A DNA stretch of 64,000 bases from Heptranchias perlo (taxonomy: Eukaryota). Below, piece after piece: positions 33,130 to 57,332 of this stretch (position 1 is its first letter; each line of letters begins with the position of its first letter). The translations under genes were made by a program, and so were the position numbers. The notes under the pieces are model-generated. The model searched no databases. It was not told where the DNA came from and saw only the letters and a list, made by a program, of their open reading frames with translations. Where the stretch lies: positions 39,060,001-39,124,000 of the forward strand of contig NC_090331.1 of NCBI RefSeq assembly GCF_035084215.1, in the 5' to 3' direction.

Positions 33130-33184
33130 AACACTGAAACCAAAGTATTTGCTCTTATGTGTGTAATCAACCGTTGAATTTTGA

Positions 33185-33376
33185 TGTGGAGATGCCGGTG
33201 ATGGACTGGGGTGGACAAATGTAAGGAATCTTACAACACCAGGTTATAGTCCAACAAATTTATTTTAAAATCACAAGCTTTCGGAGATTATCTCCTTCGT
33301 CAGATGATTGAATGAAAAGGTTCTCAAATCGCATATCTTATACGATGTTGGGACAGCATCACACCAATCAAAAGGT
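33185..33376 (-). mobile_element. Short Penelope-derived element with hammerhead ribozyme
   Basis: Shares the tail ccccagtccatcaccggcatctccacatca with 55736-57318. 12-bp target duplication gttgaattttga at 33173-33184 and 33377-33388. Confidence 0.85.
33269..33309 (-). ncRNA. Minimal type I hammerhead ribozyme
   Basis: AATCAT CTGACGA A GGAG ataat CTCC GAAA GCTT GTGATT. Confidence 0.8.
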
Positions 33377-34143
33377 GTTGAATTTTGAGATCAGGAACAA
33401 AAATTAAATTACATTTCATATTTGAAAAATTGTGTAGTGTCTCGTTGTGTAGATTGTATTTATCATATATTAACTTTGGTAATTGGTGCACACATACCAT
33501 TGAAGTCTCCTATGTCAACTGGCCCCTTTTGGAAAATCCCATAATAAAATTGTCCACATTTACCTACAACACCTGTTATGCCTACAGGTGGTGCTATGAT
33601 AGGTATTTTCAATGTTATGTGTCATGGTTTTGCCTGTCATATAATGCTTGATGTCACATAATAGTTGCTATTGTAAACTGAGACTGTATGATAAAAAGAA
33701 ATGCTTAACTCCACATATGGTTACAGGCTTTGGCCACTGGGTATTGCAATAGAGCAGTTTAAGTTTCTGAGCTTCCAGTTTGTCAGCCATATTGGTAAAG
33801 AAAGTTTCATAGCTAATTTTGCATTTAAATCTAATTTTCTGCATTTAACCCATGAATTGGCTGCTCTTCCAGTGCCCAGCCTGCCTCTCTGCTGCCCTCC
33901 CCTCTTCAAAACAGCTGCTGTACTGGTGGCCCGATTATTATTCCCCTGGTGCTGGCCTGATGTTCCACTTGTTCACAGGCTACATTGCTGTTACGCTTGG
34001 CTTCCACTCCTCACATTCTTCCACCAATCTTCTGCTCATTCTCTGTTCAATTGCTGGGCTGTTGTTGGGTTCTTAGATAGCAATTTTTAAAAAATTCCTG
34101 GGCCCTTTCATAGACAGTCTCTGCCTCAACTGTAATTTTGCGA

Positions 34144-36969: not shown

Positions 36970-37738
36970 GTAAAGTGACAAAGCAAACTGGTTATAACCA
37001 CATACATAGCAAACTGTCAATTTTACAACATTCAGTTAGACTTTTATAAAATACACCCCTTACTTTTATCTCAATAAAAGTGAGACCACATGAACTGTAT
37101 TGGTAAACTATGGAACATATATGATTACCTCTAAAGTATGAAATCTTTCACAAAATGATTTTTTAAAGTCTGTAAATATAATGGTACTTTGGAAATTTAT
37201 TAGGAAAAAATACTAGAAATTTTGCTTTTGGATTTTTCTATTGTACATTTGAAATTATAAAATGTTCTTTCCTTTTCCTTTTATAACTTTGCACCAGCCT
37301 GAAACCTTATTGCCCAGCATCTTTTGCACCAATTAATTTATGTGTCACAGATCTTTTGCCTTGGTCTTCCAGCAGTAATTCCTGGTGATAATTAATCCGA
37401 GTTTCACCTGGTCTTAATTGAGCCAGACTACATAAGTTCAGGCAAGTGAACAGTCAAGACAAATTCTTTAGGGGATTGAGAAACACAACACTGTTATTAA
37501 GAGAAGGCTTTTTTTTAAAAAAACTAGCAATAGAACTAATTTGTGCAATTCAATTTTAAATTCATCTTCCATTAATATTGAGATTTGCTTCTGAGTTTTA
37601 TATGTTCATTTCAACACTGTTTTTCTTATTCTGTAATGTAACTGAATTTAGTAACGTTTAATCTTCCCTTATCACCATGCAGCTCAATAAGTTGGATTTT
37701 ATGCTGTTTTATAAGAAGTATTGTGACAAAAATTATAA

Positions 37739-38326
37739 AGCTGATTTTCTTAGAGCAAACAGTAGGTAGGTGGTGGGCAAACAATTGCACTGCCCACCCA
37801 ATGGCTCTAGCAAAAAGTCTGAACCATTTGTATAGTTGGGCGTCACTTAATGGAATAAGTAAGTTGCCAGCACTCAGTGAGCATTGACTGGCAGCTTGCT
37901 CATTGGAAGAGTGGGGGGAACCTGATGGCTCCTGTGCAGAGCCTAACCAGAAGTCAAAACTTAAAGGAGGGTGGGATGTATTCCTGGTGAGGGACCAATG
38001 AGCAGCCTGCAGTGAGTGGGAAGAATTTTGTGGGTCACAGGTCTTTTGGGTGTTTGGGAGCAGCCTCCATTGATCAGGTCACTCTACGTCAAATACCACT
38101 GGGCAGAGCACGCACAGCACAATACTCTCCCCATTGGTACATGAGAATTGTGTCAGGGTCCTGTAACCGATGTAGTACTCCGATTTTAATAAGGCCTGAA
38201 CCTGCATTTTGAGGTCTGATTGAAAATTGAATTGGGTTGCCAGTAGGCGAGAGATCATTAAAAAAAATTCTGCCAACTGCCCCATTTACAGTGCTAATGG
38301 GACAGAAGACAGATGAAAATTGCCCC
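37739..38326. mobile_element. Degraded MITE-like element
   Basis: gctgattttc...gaaaattgcccc termini with a GC-richer interior. Confidence 0.4.
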
Positions 38327-41144
38327 TGATGTATATTTGTTTGGTGGTTGCCCCTTTAAAGCTCAGTCATTGTACAGATAGTTTGACAGCTAGCTTGGGC
38401 CAGGGTTTTATACCAGGCCTGTCACAATACAATCATGTGAGTTTGTTGTAGTCTCCCTTGTAATGTTCTTAAATAATCTAACACTACATTTTCAAATGTA
38501 TAAAGATTTAGTGATTGGTTCAGTTTGTATCTGAATGCAATTCCCTTTTGAGAGGTTAGATATTCAAAATCCAGGTACCTAATAACTCTTTTTTGTTCCG
38601 TTGGGACGGGCTCCACTTAAACCGCGTCCTGGCGAATCAAATAACTAGGGCTGTAGATAGGGCTTTACAATATAAAGGGGGAGGGGGAGAGGTCAGGTGA
38701 GGGGAAACTTAGAAATCTAATGAGAAAATTCAAGGCAACAGAACAGTGTAGTGATTTGGGTAAAGATAAGCAGAGTGTGGCAGGAAGGGACAGAGAGTGG
38801 CAGGAAGGGACAGAGAGTTTATCAATAATAGAGCATCGACAATTAAGGTCAAAGCAGGGAAAAATGGTTAAAAAGTCAAAATTAAACATTATTTATCTGA
38901 ATGCATGGAGCATTCGTAACAAGATAGATGAATTAGTCGCACAAATAGAGATAAATGGGTTTGATCTAATAGCTGTTACAGAGACATGGTTACAAAATGA
39001 CCAAGATTGGGAACTAAATATTCCAGGGTACATGACGTTTAGAAAAGGCAGAATGGAAAAGGAAAGGGTGTTGCCCTAATAATAAAGGATGATATAAGAA
39101 CAGCGGTGAAAAAGGATCTTCGCTCGGAAGATCAGGAAGCAGAATCAGTATGGGTGGAAATAAGAAATAACAAGAGGCAGAAAACATTGGTGGGAGTAGT
39201 TTATAGGCCCCCTAATAGTAGCTATACCATTGGACAGAGTATTAATCATGAAATAATAGGAGTTTGTAACAAAGGTAATGCAGTAATCATGGGGGACTTT
39301 AATCTTCATATGGACTGGTTAAATCAAATTGGCAAAAAGTAATTTGGAGGACGAGTTCATGGAATCCATTCAAGATGGCTTCCTCGAGCAATACCACATG
39401 GAACCAACCAGGGAACAGGCTAGTTTAGATCTTGTATTGTGCAATGAGATAGGGTTAATTAGTAATCTCACAGTAAAGGATCCTCTGCGGAAGAGTGATT
39501 ATAATATGATAGAATTTCACATTGAGTTTGAGAGTGACGTACTTAAATCTGAAACTAGAGTCTTAAAGTTAAATAAACCCAATTACATAGGTACATAGGT
39601 ATGATGGGCAAGTCAGCGAAGGTAGATTGGGAAATTAAATTAAAGAGTATGATGGATGAAAAGCAATGGCAAAAATTTAAAGAAATATTTCAATATTCTC
39701 AACAAATGTACATTCCATTGAGAACTAAAAACTTCATGGGAAAAGTGATCCACCCGTGGCTAACTAAAGAAGTTAAAGATAATTAGATTAAAACAAGAGG
39801 ACTATAATGTTGCCAAGAAGAGTAATAAGCCTGAGGATTGAAAGAGTTTTAGAAACCAACAAAGGACAACCAAAAAATTGATCAAAAGGGAGAAAATAGA
39901 ATATGAAAGTAAACTAGCAAGAAATATAAAAACAGATTGTAAGAGCTTCTACAAGTATATAAAAAGGAAGAGAGTAGCAAAAGTAAATGTTGGTCCCCTA
40001 GAGGCTGAGACAGGAGAAATTATAATGGGGAATTAGGAAATGGCAGATGCGTTAAACAAATATTTTGTATCTGTCTTCACAGTCGACGGCACAAAAAGCA
40101 TACCAGAAATAGTGGGGAACCAAGGGGCTAATGAGAGTGAGGAACTTGAAGTCATTAGTATCTGTAGAGGAAAAAGTCCTTCAGAAACTAATGGGACTAA
40201 AAGCCGATAAATCCCCTGAACCTGATGGTCTACATCCTAGGGTTCTAAAAGCGGTGGCTGCAGAGATAGTGGATGCATTGGTTATGATCTTCCAAAATTC
40301 CCTAGATTCCAGAACGGTCCAAGTGGAGTGGAAGGTGGCAAATGTAACCCTGCTATTCAAGAAAGGAGGGAGAGAGAAAACGGGGAAAGATAGGCCAGTT
40401 AGCCTAACATCAGTTGTCGGGAAAATGCTGGAATCCATTATTAAGAAAGTGTAACAGGGCATTTAGAACATCATATTAAGATTTGGCAGAGTCAAGATGG
40501 TTTTATGAAATGGAAATTGTGTTTGACAAATTTATTAGCGTTTTTTGAGGATGTAACTAACAGCGAAGATAAAGGGGAACCAGTGAATGCAGTGTATTTG
40601 GATTTTCAAAAGGCATTCGATAAGGTGCCACATAAAAGGTTGTCATGCAAGATAAGGGCTCATGGGGTTGGGAGTGGAATATTATCATGGATAGAGAATT
40701 GGTTAACGGAAAGAAAAGAGAGTAGGGATGAATGGGTCATTTTCAGGTTGGCAGGTTGTAACTAGTGGGATACCGCAAGGATCGGTGCTTGGGCCTCAGC
40801 TATTCACAATCCATATTAATTAATTTGATGAATGGACCGAGTGTAGTGTATCCAAGTTTGCTGACAATAAAAGCTAGGTGGGAAAGTAAGCTGTAAGGAG
40901 GACACAAAGGGCTCAATTTTGAAACGGTGGTGTGTTGGCAGCGGAGGGGTGAATATTCACGTGGCAAACCTGAATAAAAAAAACTTAGTGATTCCGACGC
41001 GATCGCAACGTAATTGATGGTGATTAAATTTCTTTTCGGGTTTCGCGTCCGGCAGCCAATAATGATTGACAGGCTGGCTGCCGACAGGAGCTGCAACACC
41101 AAGGGGAGAGAAAGAGAGAGAGAGAGACATCATCCGGCGCTGGA

Positions 41145-41655
41145 ACGGAAGATCGGGGGGTGGGGGGGGGAGATCGGGGGGAGAGGGGAAGGTTGGGGGA
41201 ACATGGTGGGTGAGAGGGGCAGATCGGGGGGGAGAGTGGAAGATCGGGGGACATGAGGGGGGAGAGGGGAACATGGGGGGGGAGAGTGGAAGATCGGGGG
41301 GCAAGGGGAACATCAGGGGGACATGGGGGGAGAGGGGAACATCGGGGGGGGGAAGAGTGGAAGATCAGGGGGACATGGGGGGGAGAGGGGAAGATCGGGG
41401 GGAGAGGGGAAGATCGGGGGGAGAGGGGAAGATCGGGGGGAGAGTGGAAGATCGGGGGGACATGGGGAGGAGAGGGAAAGGTCGGGGGGACATGGGGAGG
41501 AGAGGGAAAGATCGGGGGGAGGGGAAGATCGGGGGTCATGGGGGAGAGGGGGAGATCGGGAGGTGAAGAGGGGGAGATCGGGGGGACATCGGGGGGTGAA
41601 GAGGGGGAGATTGGGGGGACATCGGGGGGTGAAGAGGGGGAGATCAGGGGGTAGA
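41145..41655. repeat. G-rich minisatellite (gatcggggg / ggagaggggaa / acatggggg units)
   Basis: Visible imperfect tandem units within a MITE-like left end that starts at 40909. Confidence 0.85.
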
Positions 41656-42327
41656 ATGACCACCGCACAGTCCTCGTGGAGATAAAGTCCCGACTTCACA
41701 CTGAGGACACCATCCAACGTGTTGTGTGGCACTACCACCGTGCTAAATGGGATAGATTCAGAACAGATCTAGCAGCTCAAAACTGGGCATCCATGAGGCA
41801 CTGTGGGCCATCAGCAGCAGCAGAATTGTATTCCAACACAATCTGTAACCTGGTGTTGTAAGATTCCTTACATTTGTCCACCCCAGTCCATCACCGGCAT
41901 CTCCACATCATATCTAAGGGAGGATATACTTGCCTTAGAGACGCAGCAACGAAGGTTCACTAGATTATTTCCTGGGATGAGAGGGTTGCCCTATGAGGAG
42001 AGATTGAGTAGATTGCGCCTATACTCTTTGGAGTTTAGAAGAATGAGAGGGGATCTCATTGAAACATATTAGATTCTGAGGGGGCTTGACAGTGCAGAGG
42101 CTGAGATGTTGCTTCCCCTGGCTGGAGAGTCTAGAACTAGAGAGCATAGTAGCAGAATAAGGGGTCGGCCATTTAAGACTGAGATGAGGAGGCATTTCTT
42201 CACTCAGAGGGTTGTGAATCTTTGGAATTCTCTACCCCACAGGGCTGTGGATGCTGAGTCATTGAGAATATTCAAATGTAAGGAATCTTACAACACCAGG
42301 TTATAGTCCAACTGTTTTATTTGAAAA

Positions 42328-42364
42328 TCACAAGCTTTCGGAGGCTTTCTCTTTCATCAGGTGA
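42328..42364 (-). ncRNA. Hammerhead ribozyme motif with a stem II mismatch
   Basis: TCAC CTGATGA A AGAG aaagc CTCC GAAA GCTT GTGA. A G>A change breaks the first stem II pair. Confidence 0.6.
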
Positions 42365-42382
42365 GTGTGGGACTCAAAACAC

Positions 42383-42419
42383 TCACCTGACGAAGGAGAA
42401 AGCCTCCGAAAGCTTGTGA
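42383..42419 (+). ncRNA. Minimal type I hammerhead ribozyme
   Basis: TCAC CTGACGA A GGAG aaagc CTCC GAAA GCTT GTGA. Confidence 0.8.
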
Positions 42420-44534
42420 TTTTCAAATAAAACAGTTGGACTATAACCTGGTGTTGTAAGATTCCTTACATTTGTCAACCCCAGTCCATCACCGGCATCT
42501 CCACATAGAGAATATTCAAGGCTGAGATAGATACATTTTTGGACTCTAGGGGAATCAAGAGATCTGGGGATCGGGCAGGAAAGTGGAGTTGAGGTCAAAG
42601 ATCAGCCATGATCTTATTGAATGGCGGAGCAGGCTCGAGGGGTCATATGGCCTACTCCTGCTCCTATTTCTTATGTTCTTATGTTCTGGGATGAAAGTAA
42701 CAATTCTCTTTGAATCTGTACATTTGGAAAGTACTGTTTCTTTTTATATTTTCTTAAGGGTGGCACAGAAATTTGCATTAGACAGTATGCGATGTCCGAA
42801 GTGTGACTCACAGCTGAAGTACGAAGGACAGAAAGTGCTCAAGTGCATAAAATTTTTATAATTTGATATGGATTGAAGGATAGAGCAGTGCTACTTCCCA
42901 GAAATCCATTACGGTTCAATTCCAGTAATTATGCAATGTTTATCTCATAATTTGTATTTTTGGCAAGGATTTCATCAAGCATTCCAGATCTATCTATCTT
43001 GCTGATTGTTGCTTTCGTTGACAATGTATCAAGTCTACTTAAACTCTCTTTCATTTTCACCCGTAGCTTTTTCATTACCATTTGTTGAGTACACATGATG
43101 ACCACTGTTGCTTAATATGTGCAATAATTTATACATATATTTCATCTGCCACTGTTCTGTCCACCTGCGTATTTTATATAACTAAATCTGTGTCCCTGGC
43201 TATCTCCTTAGTTTTGTATCATCTGCAAATTTGACCAGTTTGCATTGAGCTTCTGAATCCAAAATGGTAATGTAAATTAGCAACAGTAAGGTTTCCAAAT
43301 CTGATCTCTGGGGTACTCCACTCTGACATCGTTCTCCCAACATGTACTTCCTGCTTCAACTATTTGTTATTCATTCCCAGGTTTAATCTTGAATCCCTTC
43401 CCAGGTTTTATCTTTACTCCTCTGCATCAATTACACTCACTGCTGTGGTTATTTAAATATTTAAATATGTACGTTCTGTCCAGCATTGCCAAGGCAGTAA
43501 TGATGTTGTGAATCACAGTCTTATTTGAATACGCTGACCTGTCTTTGGGCAGGGGTTTTGGCATCCAGTGGAATTGATAATGGCTGCATAAATAGGTGGA
43601 GATACAGTAGTATAGGTCCCTGCCCAATTTTGTATCCCTGTCTGCCTGAGTAACATTGGAAAATGGGCACTAAACTGGAGAAAAAAACAGCCTTTTATGT
43701 TTACTTTCTTAACAGATTGTTTAACTCATCAAGAAATGTAGCAGGGCATTTGCACCAAAATCAAATGTATACAAAGATTAAAATATTCATTTTATTCTAA
43801 AAATACTATGGGACTAAAATTCTGGGGAGCACAGAAAACTAGGATGAACCAAATTTGGGATAGAATCCAGATCAGCCAGGTTCCCACCCCATTTGCTCGG
43901 CATTGCAATTCTGATCATGGGTGTGGGGAGGTGGGGGGGCGGGAGAGACATGTGCAGGCATACTTTGAGTGTGCGTCTGGGACATTCTTGCCCTACAATG
44001 TGAATTCCATCCAGCTTGCCACTTTTAGGTCCAGCAGATCCAATGCCAGCTGAGAGAAGGCATAGGTTCCAAGACTTCAAAGATTTTAAGGCAAAAAATA
44101 ATAAATCCCAATTACCTTCTGAATTCTGCCCCACTGTTGCTGCAGGTAATGATGTTTCTTTTTTAACGTTATCCTTCGGCCTGATAGTGACCTTGGGCTC
44201 CCCCCTTGCAGAAGCAGGGGGCTGCTCTGATTTTCTAGCGGCACCACAGGGTGGGAACCTCTATTGCAAGCATGGGCTACCTGCCCTCAGTCTGGGCCAC
44301 CTGCCCTCAGTCTGGGCCATCAGCCCTCAGTATGTAAATTAACCTGTCTCCACAAGGCCCCTCTCAAAAGGGTCGGCAGAATTTTGGACCTTGAATTAAG
44401 AAATGTTCTCTGATTCTGTACATGCCTGTAATTTAAGTTTTATAACATTGTTCATTAAAATTACAAAATTTAAATTAAAATTACAAAAATAGATCAGTTT
44501 TTGAGCTGGAATAGGAAGAAAAGAGATACATACA

Positions 44535-44824
44535 TGGCAGAAGGGTCAGAGGGCACAGATATAAGGTGGTTGGCAAAAGAACCAGAGGCGTCATGTGGAA
44601 TCATTTTTATGCACAGCGAGTTGTTATGCTCTGGAATATACTGCCTGAAAGGGTGGTGGGAGCAGATTCAATTGTAACTTTCAAAAGGGAATTGGATAAA
44701 TACTTGAAGGGAAAAAAATTAGGGCCTTTGGGGAGTAGGACTAATTGGATGATAGCTCTTCCAAAGGGCCAGCACAGGCATGATGGGCCGAATAGCCTCC
44801 TTCTGTGCTGTAACATACTATGAT
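44535..44824 (+). mobile_element. CR1 3' fragment
   Basis: GKRTRG...QRVV...FKRELDKYL, then gggccgaatagcctccttctgtgctg. Confidence 0.8.
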
Positions 44825-45468
44825 ACAGAAGACCCTTGTTATATTGCAGTTTTTGGGAGTCAATCAAAAAACATGCTGTTGTGAGGGAAGTGCGGTCTCA
44901 TTCAGTAAAGTGTAGTTTTCAATGTAATGGACCTGGCAGCTTCATAGTGTTTGAGTCATTCATGGTTGCTACCCTCATCAATAGTTCTTCTCCCTGCTGA
45001 TACCGCCCTTAATTCTGCAATCACTGTCTTTCAGCCACAAAGAACACAGAATTGGACAAACAGGAGAAGAGTAGACTAGGTAAACAGAACAGGGAAAAGT
45101 GAACAGAGCATCAGGTAGACAGAACAAAGAGTTGCGTTTAAAGAACAGAGAATCAGATAAACTTAATGGAGAAAAAACATTGGTCAAATACTGAATGAAG
45201 ACTCGGTTTATAGAAAACCAGAAAACAACAAAGAATCAAAACCACCAAATGGAGAATTGGATCCAAAAGTAGAGAATCAGATTCATATGATGAAGAAAAT
45301 GCAAAACAGAATCAGATGACCGGGTGAGGAATCAGAATTAGGGAGCAGAGAAACAGGAAAACAAAACAGAGGCTAATAAATATAGAATGAAGAATCATAA
45401 GCACAAAATATAAAATCATAAAGCATGGAACCGAGAATCAGATATAAGTAACAGAGATACAGACCTAT

Positions 45469-46061
45469 GGGGGTAATTTCTCACCTGAAAAGGGCTGGCG
45501 ACAATTAAAAATCAGTGGTGGGGTGGTTGGAGCTTGCCTGATGCAATTTTAAGGCAGGTCGGTAAATAATTCAGCGGCTTGTCCACCTGAAACCAGCGTG
45601 AGGCTACTTAAATATGCAAATCAGGGCCCTATGCCAATTGTAGGACCCTGATTGCAATTTTCAGTTACAATTGGCTGCTCTTGCCATTTGTACCAGGCAT
45701 GAGCAGTCGCTCACAAAACGGCCCAAGAAACTTTCAATTTTTTCTTCAGTGAGCAAGAGTGCTCCTCCTGGGGTCCCAAAAAGACTCCGACCCACATAGG
45801 GCTTAGTCGAAGCCCTCCCCTGGGATCACCTTCCCCCCCAATCCCTGGTCCGTACCTGCTGGCTGACTCAATGTGGGAGCCAGCTGATTCACTGCCCTCC
45901 CAGAACTGGTGAGCTGCATTGGGGCACCTGTTTGATACAAACAGCTAATAAGGACTGGGCCTCAAAATGGCTCAGGCCTTGCACTGGCATGAATGGGCAG
46001 AGCGAAGCAGAAGCTTTGCCAACTCTGCGCTCGTTTCAGGCACTACCTGAAAATCGTGCCC
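45469..46061. mobile_element. MITE-like element
   Basis: ggggtaatttctcacctgaaa ... tttcaggcactacctgaaaatcgtgccc. GC-rich island inside an A-rich tract. Confidence 0.55.
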
Positions 46062-46728
46062 ATAGGATACACCATCTGATAGACAGAATATAGAATCAGT
46101 GACACAAAAGAGAATCGGACAGATACATTGTAGAATCAGATTCACAAATACAGAAAAACACAGAACAGATACACAGGATATAGAATTAGTTTAAAAAAAA
46201 GAACGTGGCAAAGAACAACAGAAAATGAGGAACACATGAGAGAGCATCAAATATACAGAATAGTGCATCAAATATAAAGTAGAACCATATATAGAGCAGA
46301 GACTTCCATAAAGAGCACAGAAGCAAAAGAACAGAAAAACAATAGATACATAAAGGCTATTAAGAAAAAGCAGTAGAGTATACCAAATGTTCCTATGTTC
46401 CTAAATGTAGTGAATAAGAATGAAAAATATACTCTACAATTACTACACATATAGGGAACACAAGCTATAACAAAAGTTACTGCAGAGGTGATAGATGGAA
46501 AAGAATATCCTTAAAAAGACAGTAAATTGATAAATGCAGATTTTGAGAAAAAGGAAATATCCCCCATAGTGTTTTTATCCCTTGGAAAATTACAGATCTG
46601 ACCTTGAGGGAAATCCGCACAAAATTGCAGTCCTACTGGAACTTTATAAACACAATTTTAAGGCATTATATTGCTCTATGACCATAAATATTAGTTGTGT
46701 TTATTTTCTTATCAGGCAAAATACTTAT

Positions 46729-48857: not shown

Positions 48858-49358
48858 GTGATAGGGGACTCAATTGTAAGGGGAATAGACAGGCGTTTCT
48901 GCGGCTGCAACCGAGACTCCAGGATGGTGTGTTGCCTCCCTGGTGCAAGGATCAAGGATGTCTCGGAGCGGCTACAGAACATTTTGGAGGGGGAGGGCGA
49001 ACAGCCAGCTGTCGTGGTGCACATAGGCACCAACGATATAGGTAAAAAAGGGGATGAGGTCCTAAAAGCAGAATATAGGGAGTTAGGAGGTAAATTAAAA
49101 AATAGGACCTCAAAGGTAGTAATCTCAGGATTGCTGCCAGTGCCACGTGCTAGTCAGAGTAGAAATAGGAGGATATTTCAAATGAATACGTGGCTAGAGG
49201 AATGGTGCAAGGGGGAGGGATTCAAATTCCTGGGACACTGGAAACGGTTCTGGGGGAGGTGGGACCAGTACAAACCGGATGGTCTGCACCTGGGCAGGGC
49301 CGGGACCGCTGTCCTAGGAGGAGTGTTTGCTAGTGCTGTTGGGGAGGGTTTAAACTAA
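48858..49358 (+). CDS. CR1 ORF1 C-terminal SGNH-esterase-like domain (5' truncated)
   Basis: IGDSIVRG, CLPGA, VHIGTND and DGLHL blocks. Ends GLN-TAA. Confidence 0.88.
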   Translation: MIGDSIVRGIDRRFCGCNRDSRMVCCLPGARIKDVSERLQNILEGEGEQPAVVVHIGTNDIGKKGDEVLKAEYRELGGKLKNRTSKVVISGLLPVPRASQSRNRRIFQMNTWLEEWCKGEGFKFLGHWKRFWGRWDQYKPDGLHLGRAGTAVLGGVFASAVGEGLN

Positions 49359-49441
49359 AGTGGCAGGGGGTTGGGAACCTGAGCAGGGAGAGAGAGGAAA
49401 GCGTAACAGGAAGGGACAGAAGGTATGGAGTAATAGGTAAA

Positions 49442-52297
49442 GTGTTAAAAAAGGAAAAAGCAGGAACTAAGCGTCACAAAACAGATTTGAAAGTTCTTTA
49501 TCTGAATGCACGTAGCATTCGTAATAAAATGGACGAGTTAACGGCACAAATAACTACGTATGGGTATGATCTTGTGGCCATTACAGAAACATGGCTGCAG
49601 GGTGACAACGACTGGGAATTAAATATGCCAGGGTATTTAACAATCAGGAAGGACAGGCAGGAAGGAAGGGGAGGTGGGGTGGCTATGTTAATAAAGGAAG
49701 GAATCACTGTAATACAGAGAAATGATATTGGGACAAAGCATCAAGATAATGAAACAGTTTGGGTGGAGATAAGGAATAATAAGGGAAAAAAAACATTAGT
49801 GGGCGTAGTATATAGGCCTCCTAATAGTTGCAACTCTGCTGGAAGAAGTATTAATCAGGAGATAGTCGGGGCATGTAATAAGGGAACAGCCATAATTATG
49901 GGGGATTTTAATTATCATATTAACTGGACAAATCAAATTGGGCAGAGCAGCCTTGAGGACGAGTTCATTGAGTGCATCAGGGATGGATTTCTTGAGCAGT
50001 ATGTAACTGATCCTACAAGGGGGCAGGCAACCTTGGACCTGGTCCTGTGTAATGAGTCAGGATTAATTAATAATGTCCTAGTTAAGGATCCCCTTGGAAC
50101 GAGCGACCACAACATGGTTGAATTCCATATCCAATTAGAGGGTGAGAAGGTTGATTCTCAAACAAGCATACTGAGCTTGAATAAAGGAGACTATGATGGT
50201 ATGAGAGCGGAATTGATTAAAGTGGACTGGGAAAATAGATTAAAGGGTAAGACGGTACATGAGCAGTGGTGTTCATTTAGGGAGTTATTTTACAACTTTC
50301 AAAATAAATATATTCCACTGAGGAAAAAAGGGTGTAAAAGAAATGACAGCCATCCGTGGCTAAGTAAAGAAATCAAGGATAGTATCCGACTAAAAACAAG
50401 GACATATAAGGTAGCCAAACTTAGTGGGAGGATAGAAGATTGGGAATTCTTCAAAAGACAGCAAAAAGTAACTAAAGGATTGATTAAGAAAGGGAAGTTA
50501 GATTATGAAAAGAAATTAGCAAAAAATATAAAAACAGATAGCAAGAGTTTCTACAGTTATATAAAAAGAAAAAGGGTGGCTAAGGCAAACATAGGTCCCT
50601 TAGAGGATGAGACCGGGAAATTAATGGTGGGAAACATGGAGATGGCAAAAATGCTGAACAAATATTTTGTTTCAGTCTTTACAGTAGAGGACACTAAGAA
50701 TATCCCAACACTGGACAAACAGGGGACTCTCGGGGGGGAGGAGCTAAATACGATTAAAATCACTCAGGAGATGGTACTCAGTAAAATAATGGGACTCAAG
50801 GCGGATAAATCCCCTGGACCTGATGGCTTCCATCCTAGGGTCTTGAGGGAAGTGGCAGTAGGGATTGTGGATGCTTTGGTGATAGTTTTCCAAAATTCCC
50901 TGGACTCAGGAGAGGTCCCGGCAGATTGGAAAACTGCTAATGTAACACCGTTATTTAAAAAGGGTAGTAGGCAGAAGGCTGGAAATTATAGGCCAGTTAG
51001 CTTAACATCTGTGGTGGGTAAAATTTTGGAGTCTATTATTAAGGAGACAGTAACGGAACATTTAGATAAGCATAATTTAATAGGACAAAGTCAGCATGGC
51101 TTTATGAAGGGGAAGTCATGTCTGACAAATTTGCTTGAGTTCTTCGAGGATATAACGTATAGGGTGGATAAAGGGGAACCAGTGGACATAGTGTATTTAG
51201 ACTTCCAGAAGGCATTCGACAAGGTGCCACATAAAAGATTATTACTTAAGATAAAAAATCACGGGATTGGGGGTAATATTCTGGCATGGGTGGAGGATTG
51301 GTTATCGAACAGGAAGCAGAGAGTTGGGATAAATGGTTCATTTTCGGACTGGCAACCAGTAACCAGTGGTGTTCCACAGGGGTCGGTGCTGGGTCCCCAA
51401 CTCTTTACAATCTATATTAACGATTTGGAGGAGGGGACCGAGTGCAACATATCAAAATTTGCAGATGATACAAAGATGGGAGGGAAAGTAGAGAGTGAGG
51501 AGGACATAAAAAACCTGCAAGGGGATATAGACAGGCTGGGTGAGTGGGCGGAGATTTGGCAGATGCAATATAATATTGGAAAATGTGAGGTTATGCACTT
51601 TGGCAGGAAAAATCAGAGAGCAAGTTATTTTCTTAATGGCGAGAGACTGGAAAGTACTGCAGTACAAAGGGATCTGGGGGTCCTAGTGCAAGAAAATCAA
51701 AAAGTTGGTATGCAGGTGCAGCAGGTGATCAAGAAAGCCAACGGAATGTTGGCTTTTATTGCTAGGGGGATAGAATATAAAAACAAGGAGGTATTGCTGC
51801 AGTTATATAAGGTATTGGTGAGACCGCACCTGGAATACTGCATACAGTTTTGGTCTCCATACTTAAGAAAAGACATACTTGCTCTCGAGGCAGTACAAAG
51901 AAGGTTCACTCGGTTAATCCCGGGGATGAGGGGGCGGACATATGAGGAGAGGTTGAGTAGATTGGGACTCTACTCATTGGAGTTCAGAAGAATGAGAGGC
52001 GATCTTATTGAAACATATAAGATTGTGAAGGGTCTTGATCGGGTGGATGCAGTAAGGATGTTCCCAAAGATGGGTGAAACTAGAACTAGGGGGCATAATC
52101 TTAGAATAAGGGGCTGCTCTTTCAAAACTGAGATGAGGAGAAACTTCTTCACTCAGAGGGTAGTAGATCTGTGGAATTTGCTGCCCCAGGAAGCTGTGGA
52201 AGCTACATCATTAGATAAATTTAAAACAGAAATAGACAGTTTCCTAGAAGTAAAGGGAATTAGGGGTTATGGGGAGCGGGCAGGAAATTGGACATGA
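49442..52297 (+). CDS. CR1 ORF2: APE endonuclease + reverse transcriptase (frame is open from 49334)
   Basis: YLNARS, ITETWL, VYRPP, MGDFN and SDH endonuclease motifs. RT motifs [27 protein letters not shown] and KFADD. Confidence 0.95.
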   Translation: MLKKEKAGTKRHKTDLKVLYLNARSIRNKMDELTAQITTYGYDLVAITETWLQGDNDWELNMPGYLTIRKDRQEGRGGGVAMLIKEGITVIQRNDIGTKHQDNETVWVEIRNNKGKKTLVGVVYRPPNSCNSAGRSINQEIVGACNKGTAIIMGDFNYHINWTNQIGQSSLEDEFIECIRDGFLEQYVTDPTRGQATLDLVLCNESGLINNVLVKDPLGTSDHNMVEFHIQLEGEKVDSQTSILSLNKGDYDGMRAELIKVDWENRLKGKTVHEQWCSFRELFYNFQNKYIPLRKKGCKRNDSHPWLSKEIKDSIRLKTRTYKVAKLSGRIEDWEFFKRQQKVTKGLIKKGKLDYEKKLAKNIKTDSKSFYSYIKRKRVAKANIGPLEDETGKLMVGNMEMAKMLNKYFVSVFTVEDTKNIPTLDKQGTLGGEELNTIKITQEMVLSKIMGLKADKSPGPDGFHPRVLREVAVGIVDALVIVFQNSLDSGEVPADWKTANVTPLFKKGSRQKAGNYRPVSLTSVVGKILESIIKETVTEHLDKHNLIGQSQHGFMKGKSCLTNLLEFFEDITYRVDKGEPVDIVYLDFQKAFDKVPHKRLLLKIKNHGIGGNILAWVEDWLSNRKQRVGINGSFSDWQPVTSGVPQGSVLGPQLFTIYINDLEEGTECNISKFADDTKMGGKVESEEDIKNLQGDIDRLGEWAEIWQMQYNIGKCEVMHFGRKNQRASYFLNGERLESTAVQRDLGVLVQENQKVGMQVQQVIKKANGMLAFIARGIEYKNKEVLLQLYKVLVRPHLEYCIQFWSPYLRKDILALEAVQRRFTRLIPGMRGRTYEERLSRLGLYSLEFRRMRGDLIETYKIVKGLDRVDAVRMFPKMGETRTRGHNLRIRGCSFKTEMRRNFFTQRVVDLWNLLPQEAVEATSLDKFKTEIDSFLEVKGIRGYGERAGNWT

Positions 52298-55280: not shown

Positions 55281-55793
55281 AGTTTTCTCAGCACAGTGTG
55301 AACCAATGCAGGCACGAAGATGAAAATGGCAAAATGCAATCAGCCTCACCTGTACTGGTGCTGTCAACACACTGTCACATGGCTTGGAAACACAAATTAG
55401 AAAGACTCACATGTAGCACCAGAGCTTGGAGATTGGAGTTGGAGGAATCAAGGAAAAGTAATCAAATGAATCTGTAAATTCTCATGTGACAGAAAAGCAT
55501 GAGGTAAAATAGCATGATGGAAATAGAGTGGCCGGAAGTGTGTAATAGAAATAGGCATGACAGCTACAGGAAATAAGAGTTACACTTACAGGAATAATGT
55601 GCATATGCAAGAATATATATTTTTTTCCACTCAGCATGCTTAAACAGTAACTCTGAATGAAAGCCTTTCCAGGTTAATTTTTACTCTGATGAGTTTCTTT
55701 CAATATATTCATATTCTCTATTCTCTTCACCCATGATGTGGAGATGCCGGTGATGGACTGGGGTTGACAATTGTAAACAATTTTACAACACCA

Positions 55794-57008
55794 AAGAACT
55801 TTACCCAAACACACGGAACAGCCATAGGGACCAAATTCGCACCCCAATACGCCAACATTTTCATGCACAAGTTCGAGCAGGACTTCTTCACTGCACAGGA
55901 CCTCCAACCAACACTATACACCAGATACATCGACGACATTTTCTTTCTATGGACCCACGGTGAGGAATCACTGAAGAGACTACACGATAACATCAACAAG
56001 TTCCATCCCACCATCAAGCTCACCATGGACTACTCCTCAGGATCGGTTTCTTTCTTGGACACACGAATCTCCATCAAAGACGGGCACCTCAGCACCTCAC
56101 TCTACCGCAAGCCCACGGACAATCTCACAATGCTCCACTTTTCCAGCTTCCACCCTAACCACGTCAAAGAGGCCATCCCCTATGGACAGGCCCTGCGAAT
56201 ACACAGGGTCTGCTCAGACGAGGAGGAACGCGATGGACACCTACAGACGCTGAAAGACGCCCTAGTAAGAACGGGATATGATGCTCGACTCATCGATCGA
56301 CAGTTCCGACGGGCCACAGCGAAAAATCGCGTAGACCTCCTCAGAAGACTAACACGGGACGCAACCAACAGAGTACCCTTCGTCGTCCAGTACTTCCCCG
56401 GAGCGGAGAAACTACGCCATGTTCTCCGCAGCCTTCAACATGTCATCAATGATGACGAACACCTCGCTATGGCCATCCCCACACCTCCACTACTCGCCTT
56501 TAAACAGCCACCCAACCTCAAACAAACCATCGTTCGCAGCAAATTACCCAGCCTTCAGGAGAACAGCGTCCACGACACCACACAACCCTGCCACGGTAAC
56601 CTCTGCAAGACATGCCAGATCATCGACACAGATACCACCATCACACGAGAGGACACCACCCACCAGGTGCACGGTTCATACTCCTGTGACTCGGCCAACG
56701 TTGTCTACCTCATACGTTGCAGGAAAGGATGCCCCAGAGCATGGTACATTGGCGAGACCATGCAGACGCTGCGACAACGGATGAACGGACACCGCGCAAC
56801 AATCGCCAAACAGGAGGGTTCTCTCCCTGTCGGGGAACACTTCAGCAGTCATGGACATTCAGCCACCGACCTTCCGGTAAGCATACTCCAAGGCGGCCTT
56901 CGAGACACACGACAACGCAAAATCGTCGAGCAGAAACTGATAGCCAAGTTCCGCACCCATGAGGACGGCCTCAACCTGGATCTTGGGTTCATGTCACACT
57001 ACACGTAA
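55794..57008 (+). CDS. Penelope-like RT (partial) + Cys-rich linker + GIY-YIG endonuclease
   Basis: QTHGTAIGT, RYIDDIF, FLD, YRKPT, PCHGNLCKTC, VVYLIRC...WYIGET...RMNGH and GLN. No internal stop. Confidence 0.92.
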   Translation, partial: KNFTQTHGTAIGTKFAPQYANIFMHKFEQDFFTAQDLQPTLYTRYIDDIFFLWTHGEESLKRLHDNINKFHPTIKLTMDYSSGSVSFLDTRISIKDGHLSTSLYRKPTDNLTMLHFSSFHPNHVKEAIPYGQALRIHRVCSDEEERDGHLQTLKDALVRTGYDARLIDRQFRRATAKNRVDLLRRLTRDATNRVPFVVQYFPGAEKLRHVLRSLQHVINDDEHLAMAIPTPPLLAFKQPPNLKQTIVRSKLPSLQENSVHDTTQPCHGNLCKTCQIIDTDTTITREDTTHQVHGSYSCDSANVVYLIRCRKGCPRAWYIGETMQTLRQRMNGHRATIAKQEGSLPVGEHFSSHGHSATDLPVSILQGGLRDTRQRKIVEQKLIAKFRTHEDGLNLDLGFMSHYT

Positions 57009-57228
57009 CCCCACCAGCGAACAAATGTTATCTGTTTTTAATATAACGGGTCATTGACTGTCTTCCTTATCTCTCTCTCTCTTTTTTTGGGGGGTTTGTA
57101 TATTCGGTGGCCTTTTTAGGTGACACCTTTCTGTCTGCTCACTGTGATTGCCTTGGCAACGGGCAGTAATCACCAGGCATTGTTATGTGATCTTAAAATG
57201 CGAAGGATTCGAAAATGTCATTTCCACA

Positions 57229-57265
57229 CCGCCTGAGGAAGGGGAAAGCCCCCGAAAGCTTGTGG
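57229..57265 (+). ncRNA. Minimal type I hammerhead ribozyme in the Penelope 3' repeat
   Basis: CCGC CTGAGGA A GGGG aaagc CCCC GAAA GCTT GTGG, followed by AATAAA. Confidence 0.82.
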
Positions 57266-57332
57266 GATTAAAAATAAAATTGCTGGACTATAACTTGGTG
57301 TTGTAAAATTGTTTACAACTCTTCACCCATGT

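Follow-up and report, generated by a model that had tools for sequence, protein, structure and literature searches.

A sodium-channel gene carries in one of its introns a 232-bp palindrome, hereafter the stub, with a hammerhead ribozyme motif on each strand. The locus raises the question of whether such a structure is a unit that propagates itself, a hairpin kept by the host for the sake of the channel transcript, or the product of one insertion by a larger element. Its anatomy, its parent element and its relatives in the genome argue for the last of these, and we are highly confident in identifying it as a one-off stub of a Penelope element (PLE). Very probably it is a single insertion, likely a dead end, in which two copies of the element's leader stand head to head.

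Anatomy of the insertion and its host intron

Within the window, the whole 64,000-nt stretch of DNA that was analysed, positions 42276-42507 form a 232-bp insertion with inverted arms, a centre, a one-sided tail and a flanking target duplication. The parts of the insertion and the sequences that contain it are as follows.

42264..42275, plus strand: left target-site duplication, 12 nt
42276..42368, minus strand: tail-less arm, a copy of the element's 5' leader (element sense is channel pre-mRNA sense)
42369..42378, strandless: centre, 10 nt
42379..42474, plus strand: tail-bearing arm, a second leader copy, starting 8 nt before the hammerhead core
42475..42507, plus strand: one-sided tail, 33 nt, ending 1 base before the start-codon position of the autonomous element
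42508..42519, plus strand: right target-site duplication, 12 nt, identical to the left
41911..42687, plus strand: older CR1-like LINE (3' part), into which the stub has inserted
36970..46728, minus strand: host intron, 9,759 nt, with AT...AC ends, of a Nav1.2-like sodium-channel alpha gene

The two arms pair over 96 nt each (42273-42368 with 42379-42474) at 98% complementarity across a 10-nt gap, and their mismatches are confined to positions 42352 and 42356 (2 of 96 sites). Pairing of the tail-less arm reaches 3 nt into the target duplication; since the left duplication covers the first 3 nt of that arm, the part owned by the insertion is 93 nt. The plus-strand RNA of the palindrome has a predicted fold of -181.1 kcal/mol (z -25.9), a value equalled by none of 200 shuffles, and all six reading frames contain stop codons. 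These results bear out the preliminary description of the locus, which had reported two inverted arms of about 96 bp around a 10-nt loop, a 33-nt one-sided tail, a clean 12-bp target duplication and no coding capacity.

The same description had placed the palindrome inside an older LINE and inside an AT-AC intron of a channel gene, and both placements hold. The two flanks of the stub match the C-terminal end of a 987-aa ORF2 that belongs to a LINE at another place in the window (72% and 43%). Contigs derived from further copies of the host repeat skip exactly 244 nt, the sum of the 232-bp insertion and one 12-nt duplication. The host LINE is probably a CR1. Four presumed-RNA contig sets from other organisms, compared with positions 41900-43400, yielded repeat-derived contigs only and left most of the unique flank uncovered. 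Among sequencing runs recorded as RNA, none contains the stretch.

Other repeats surround the locus. An unbroken LINE ORF2 of 987 codons, with endonuclease and reverse transcriptase recognised by eye, lies at 49334-52297 on the plus strand, inside a channel-gene intron and in antisense orientation to the gene, and is probably a young copy. Upstream of the host LINE, a G-rich tandem array with a period of ~11 nt occupies 41130-41656. A 66-nt tail-bearing fragment of the stub's own family (41843-41908) has a piece of a different repeat on one side and the host LINE on the other. No duplication was found for this fragment, which could pair with the left arm of the stub over 34 nt.

The channel gene was recognised from its last exon, whose nearest solved structure is Nav1.2 (E 4.9e-221) and which matches the Pfam family Ion_trans. 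Splicing of the host intron is deduced from the reading frame of its two exons and from the known intron position given in PMC4209135. The ends themselves are AT and AC, with a donor ATAAGT at 46728 and an acceptor ending in TAC, and the intron between them is filled with repeats. According to PMC1557818, U2-type AT-AC II introns are found mostly in the Nav gene family, and the host intron, judged by its sequence, fits this class. A U12-type minor intron, and with it any U12 link, was considered and rejected, the donor ATAAGT lacking the ATATCCT consensus. The distance from the stub is 4.2 kb to the donor and 5.3 kb to the acceptor, and nothing ties the stub to the AT-AC splice sites.

The parent element and its leader

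By sequence comparison, each arm is a copy of the untranslated leader of an abundant autonomous PLE whose long copies encode a protein of ~900 aa with a reverse transcriptase and a GIY-YIG-type domain. Among 30 loci whose tail is slightly longer, six continue into a long ORF, and the tail of the stub stops at the start codon, which identifies the arms as leader. One such ORF (L170) runs unbroken for 902 aa and matches RVT_1 at E 3.3e-10 in Pfam; another copy (L169) has the order hammerhead-ORF-hammerhead, with its ATG 121 nt after the core. Read by eye, the ORF protein has the motifs DKG and YIDD and ends in a GIY-YIG-like segment that contains two inner cysteines. Pfam gave no GIY-YIG match for the ORF at E ≤ 0.001, and the domain was read by motif.

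A C-x4-C-x2-C linker is present in the ORFs of L169, L171 and the window copy at 55737-57008 and is altered in L170. PMC8557442 describes a CX2-5CxxC linker motif before the nuclease as a mark of Neptune and Nematis that is absent in Penelope and Poseidon. Judged by these linker cysteines, the parent element is of Neptune/Nematis type. A Poseidon-clade identity had been entertained for the parent and was dropped on the presence of the same motif.

The stub itself has the features of an EN+ PLE insertion, with an inverted head-to-head 5'-truncated copy, a 33-nt tail at one end and a 12-nt target-site duplication. EN+ insertions described in PMC3846280 and PMC8557442 have an inverted pLTR, a one-sided tail of 30-40 bp and a target-site duplication, and share with the stub the head-to-head inverted 5'-truncated copy, the tail on one arm, the duplication and the pLTR hammerhead. 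The examples presented there mostly retain an ORF or a whole pLTR, whereas the arms of the stub are a leader of ~100-130 nt without an ORF. The earlier reading of the palindrome as a non-autonomous Penelope product is supported.

A 5'-truncated PLE of a related subfamily lies in the same window at 55723-57331. It repeats the stub's layout with unequal arms: a 1.5-kb tail-less arm, a 58-nt inverted tail arm and a 13-nt duplication, together with a pLTR that has a hammerhead at 57233 and an open frame of 423 codons with the end of the reverse transcriptase and nuclease motifs.

Genomic copies and the origin of the palindrome

The preliminary description had offered two readings of the palindrome, a self-propagating retrozyme-like unit or a one-off inversion product, and had proposed a genome search for the same loop with new target duplications. 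A self-propagating palindrome would be transcribed from either strand, cleave itself and be re-inserted whole. The 22-nt pattern of the stub's centre has a single match in the 3.25-Gb genome when up to 1 mismatch is allowed. All of the 30 best full-length matches, drawn from 40 scored among 1,543 candidates, are palindromes, each with its own duplication of 8-15 nt (12 nt in 15 of the 30), and the stub's centre occurs in 0 of the 29 closest other copies. The centre is thus unique and the duplications of the other copies are their own, so that the refutation test set in the preliminary description came out on the side of a one-off product.

Palindromes of this kind are abundant. Exact patterns counted at least 1,077 head-to-head double cores within 30 nt in the genome, comprising 738 with loop-II type A in both arms, 327 with type B in both and 12 of mixed type; the stub itself, altered in stem II, is missed by these patterns. 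The border of arm and tail is spanned by a 30-nt motif that has 11,334 exact matches. More than a thousand palindromes of similar size, and five centres that recur at loci with different flanks, are what a propagating unit might leave behind. The centres as a whole speak against it, however: 103 double-core palindromes reduce to 91 with distinct flanks (90 after removal of one missed duplicate), and among these 84 centres are distinct. Of the recurrent centres, two groups cross subfamilies (L058/L077 and L079/L114) and the rest share no private changes, a pattern that would arise if one joint were reached repeatedly and independently because short overlaps promote it.

The sole run of six identical centres, on C2, was tried as a candidate copied unit and rejected. 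These six loci (L163-L168, G000:C2:3.6-5.7 Mb) are segmental duplicates of one palindrome, with flanks 99.3-99.8% identical. Five of them have the centre in one orientation and L163 has it in the other, a sign of arm-to-arm recombination after insertion.

Layout also separates the stub from non-LTR retrozymes. As described in bioRxiv 10.64898/2026.07.22.740005, these resemble it in being non-coding, PLE-derived and equipped with a type I hammerhead, but they are head-to-tail tandems with a hammerhead on one strand per unit. The stub is a single head-to-head pair with a motif on each strand and no sign of amplification as a unit; no tandem head-to-tail units were found, it has no TATA-like box, and its motifs are predicted to be masked, one of them being mutated. 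Its unique centre largely refutes self-propagation, which we consider extremely improbable. The description as a one-off inversion product, by contrast, is supported by that centre and by the 84 of 90 that are distinct.

Where the arms begin bears on how a single insertion could acquire this form. Among 46 distinct upstream sequences of long copies, spanning several subfamilies, 38 have a TATA-like box that starts 35-47 nt ahead of the core. With the standard spacing of a TATA box, RNA would start roughly 5-12 nt before the core. Arm starts were collected from sets none of which was picked by centre (the best matches to the last 68 nt and, for each of two tail patterns, the 30 loci that come first by position); from 90 input loci, three were dropped as duplicates, two of which were actually ORF read-through copies, and four had no anchor. 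At the 83 resulting loci, the tail arm starts inside the leader in 13, within the 22 nt between -16 and +5 in 40, in the next 43 nt in 4 and beyond -60 in 26. The two position-ordered sets alone (53 loci) gave 11, 21, 3 and 18 in the same zones. Arm starts thus cluster about 22-45 nt behind the TATA-like box, as measured against a reference set that was selected by a motif adjoining this box. Of 87 loci, 47 are short palindromes; for the plain position-ordered set the figure is 11 of 30.

In the stub, the two arms begin at -8 and -12 and are separated by 6 unmatched bases; 4 nt of the centre prolong the template of the tail-less arm and the other 6 nt have no match in the reference upstream sequences. 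The pile-up of arm starts fits run-off at the 5' end of a transcript. From the box motif and the pile-up together, we infer that the RNA of the parent element starts about 30 nt behind the TATA-like box, just before the hammerhead. Hammerhead cleavage was rejected as the source of the short arms, the core being retained and few starts lying near the cut site at about +29.

Biochemistry on PAc, a Poseidon-clade element of Anolis carolinensis, offers a template for the insertion step. Its protein, a predicted dimer, nicks and extends both strands with uncleaved RNA as the template, and reverse transcription begins at two internal RNA sites whose spacing equals the tail (PMC11167929). The likeness to the stub lies in a tail that corresponds to the span between two internal start sites of reverse transcription near the RNA start, and the uncleaved template fits arms that retain the core. 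The two elements differ in that the ORF of PAc starts at stem II, with reverse transcription starting inside the ORF (PMC11167929), whereas the stub's parent has its start codon 121 nt after the core and a tail that ends just before it. The linker cysteine motif is present in the parent and absent in Poseidon. Counting against a transfer of the model, the biochemistry comes from a clade other than that of the stub's parent.

A mechanism of twin cDNAs and run-off modelled on these data is, in our judgement, somewhat favoured. A staggered cut would produce nicks 12 nt apart, and cDNA primed at the outer RNA site would become the tail arm while that from the inner site would become the tail-less arm. 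On a unit-length transcript, the cDNA of each nick would extend for only ~100-130 nt before running off the 5' end of the RNA, and end-joining, using short overlaps or filler, would then fuse the two cDNA ends. Long-armed versions such as the one at window 55723-57331 would stem from transcripts that read through tandem copies.

The main competitor is a snap-back, in which one cDNA (or an antisense template) folds back at the 5' end of the element and is copied into the mirror arm, as proposed for head-to-head PLE palindromes in PMC3846280. The likeness of the arms agrees with it: arms differ by 2.5% within a palindrome and by 7.4% between loci, 99% of double-core palindromes have one loop-II type, and mixed arms number 12 of 1,077 against about 460 given by random pairing (hand arithmetic). 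With arms so alike and so few mixed, one template copied twice or a snap-back fits as well as two cDNAs from the same source. Arm likeness may, however, also rise later by arm-to-arm recombination, and one of the six duplicated copies has a flipped centre. The centres are similarly two-sided. Many are overlaps of 1-9 nt, several of them at a near-self-complementary stretch upstream of the core, which counts towards a snap-back, but many others contain filler or short templated snippets. A snap-back alone, moreover, yields no unequal outer ends, whereas the one-sided tail matches the two start sites of reverse transcription (PMC11167929). Finally, 11 of the 12 palindromes of mixed type (L141-L152) are complete with one duplication by eye. 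Weighing these points, we regard a snap-back as rather unlikely.

Two details of these sets deserve separate mention. Some centres, including those of L053, L072 and L090, contain short snippets copied from stem-II sequence close by, the kind of templated insertion that end-joining is expected to leave. Among L141-L152 it is mostly loop II alone that differs, so conversion or template switching could also account for the mixing.

The broader proposal drawn from the twin-cDNA mechanism is that the stub family records how PLEs make inverted repeats, with a dimer priming two cDNAs that would each run off a TATA-set start, and with the 12 palindromes that combine arms of two subfamilies within one target duplication representing two RNAs in one insertion; we give it an even chance. 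PMC8557442 calls the way in which PLEs form inverted repeats undefined. A literature search in a collection with few subscription papers found no paper stating a model of twin priming and run-off for PLE palindromes. The value of the stub set is that it turns the matter into countable tests, namely the position of arm starts relative to the TATA-like box, the rate of subfamily mixing and the joining at centres.

Hammerhead motifs and the channel transcript

One hammerhead core lies on each strand of the stub, at 42387 on the plus strand and at 42360 on the minus strand, the two being 26 nt apart.

42383..42419, plus strand: minimal type I hammerhead motif as defined in PMC4209133, antisense to the channel pre-mRNA
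42328..42364, minus strand: minimal type I hammerhead motif with G10.1 changed to A at 42352, in pre-mRNA sense

The plus-strand motif consists of a 4-bp stem I, the core at 42387-42393, an extra A, a 4-bp stem II and a palindromic stem III. It thereby has every element of a minimal type I hammerhead: the core boxes, an extra base after A9, the G10.1-C11.1 pair and the palindromic stem III. The minus-strand copy lacks the conserved stem-II pair and, when isolated, folds otherwise than as a hammerhead. An isolated plus-strand arm is predicted to fold into stems I and II, and neither strand's fold beats shuffles. A search of the whole window with Rfam at the gathering threshold returned no match, and the hammerhead call therefore rests on the motif and on PMC4209133.

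Minimal type I hammerheads of metazoan PLEs, as presented in PMC4209133, share with the stub the short stem I, the extra base between A9 and G10.1 and the palindromic 15.2-16.2. Stem II is 4 bp in the stub versus 7-8 bp in Schistosoma. Dual motifs on opposite strands, 100-700 bp apart, were already reported in the same source; the cores of the stub are only 26 nt apart and one copy lacks G10.1. The layout of the stub, including pairs of hammerheads on opposite strands, is thus already published, and a single stub is ordinary. On its own it carries little weight, being one of more than a thousand, and nothing indicates that it plays a part in the channel gene.

The claim that a ribozyme motif is produced whichever strand is transcribed stands in part: each strand has one motif, but the copy in pre-mRNA sense is damaged at G10.1. 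That the ribozyme would be masked in a long hairpin is supported as a prediction by the fold of the plus-strand RNA. The full complement of the minus-strand hammerhead would be transcribed first, so that the motif would already be base-paired on emergence. As for the class in general, PMC4209133 reports that a single minimal motif showed no cleavage as a monomer, and according to PMC11167929 the hammerhead does not cleave unless the protein of the element is present. The stub's hammerhead is unlikely to cut the channel pre-mRNA, because the sense motif is mutated and predicted to be paired on emergence, and because the class is reported to need a partner or protein.

Within the channel pre-mRNA, the stub would form a hairpin of ~95 bp, a plausible substrate for ADAR editing or dicing. 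A very stable predicted fold inside an intron of a Nav1.2-like gene invites the thought that the host has kept the hairpin as a regulator of the sodium-channel transcript, acting by way of ADAR editing, products of Dicer or an influence on how the AT-AC intron is spliced. The circumstances of the locus weigh against this. The stub is one among more than a thousand alike and lies within an older repeat; at 4.2 and 5.3 kb from the splice sites, it pairs with itself and not with an exon; and its arm divergence, 2 of 96 sites, is like that of other copies (2.5%) and bears no mark of conservation. We consider a host-kept hairpin highly improbable, and any A-to-I editing of the stub would likely be a by-product. 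If such hairpins were shown to be edited, the stubs would correspond in this lineage to inverted pairs of Alu elements.

The next intron of the channel gene contains a non-inverted 192-nt copy of the stub's family at 33173-33388, with the tail and a 12-nt duplication. Its hammerhead (core at 33303, minus strand) is intact and in pre-mRNA sense, and no inverted arm is present to mask it. With an intact, sense and unmasked motif, this copy is a better candidate for pre-mRNA cleavage than the palindrome.
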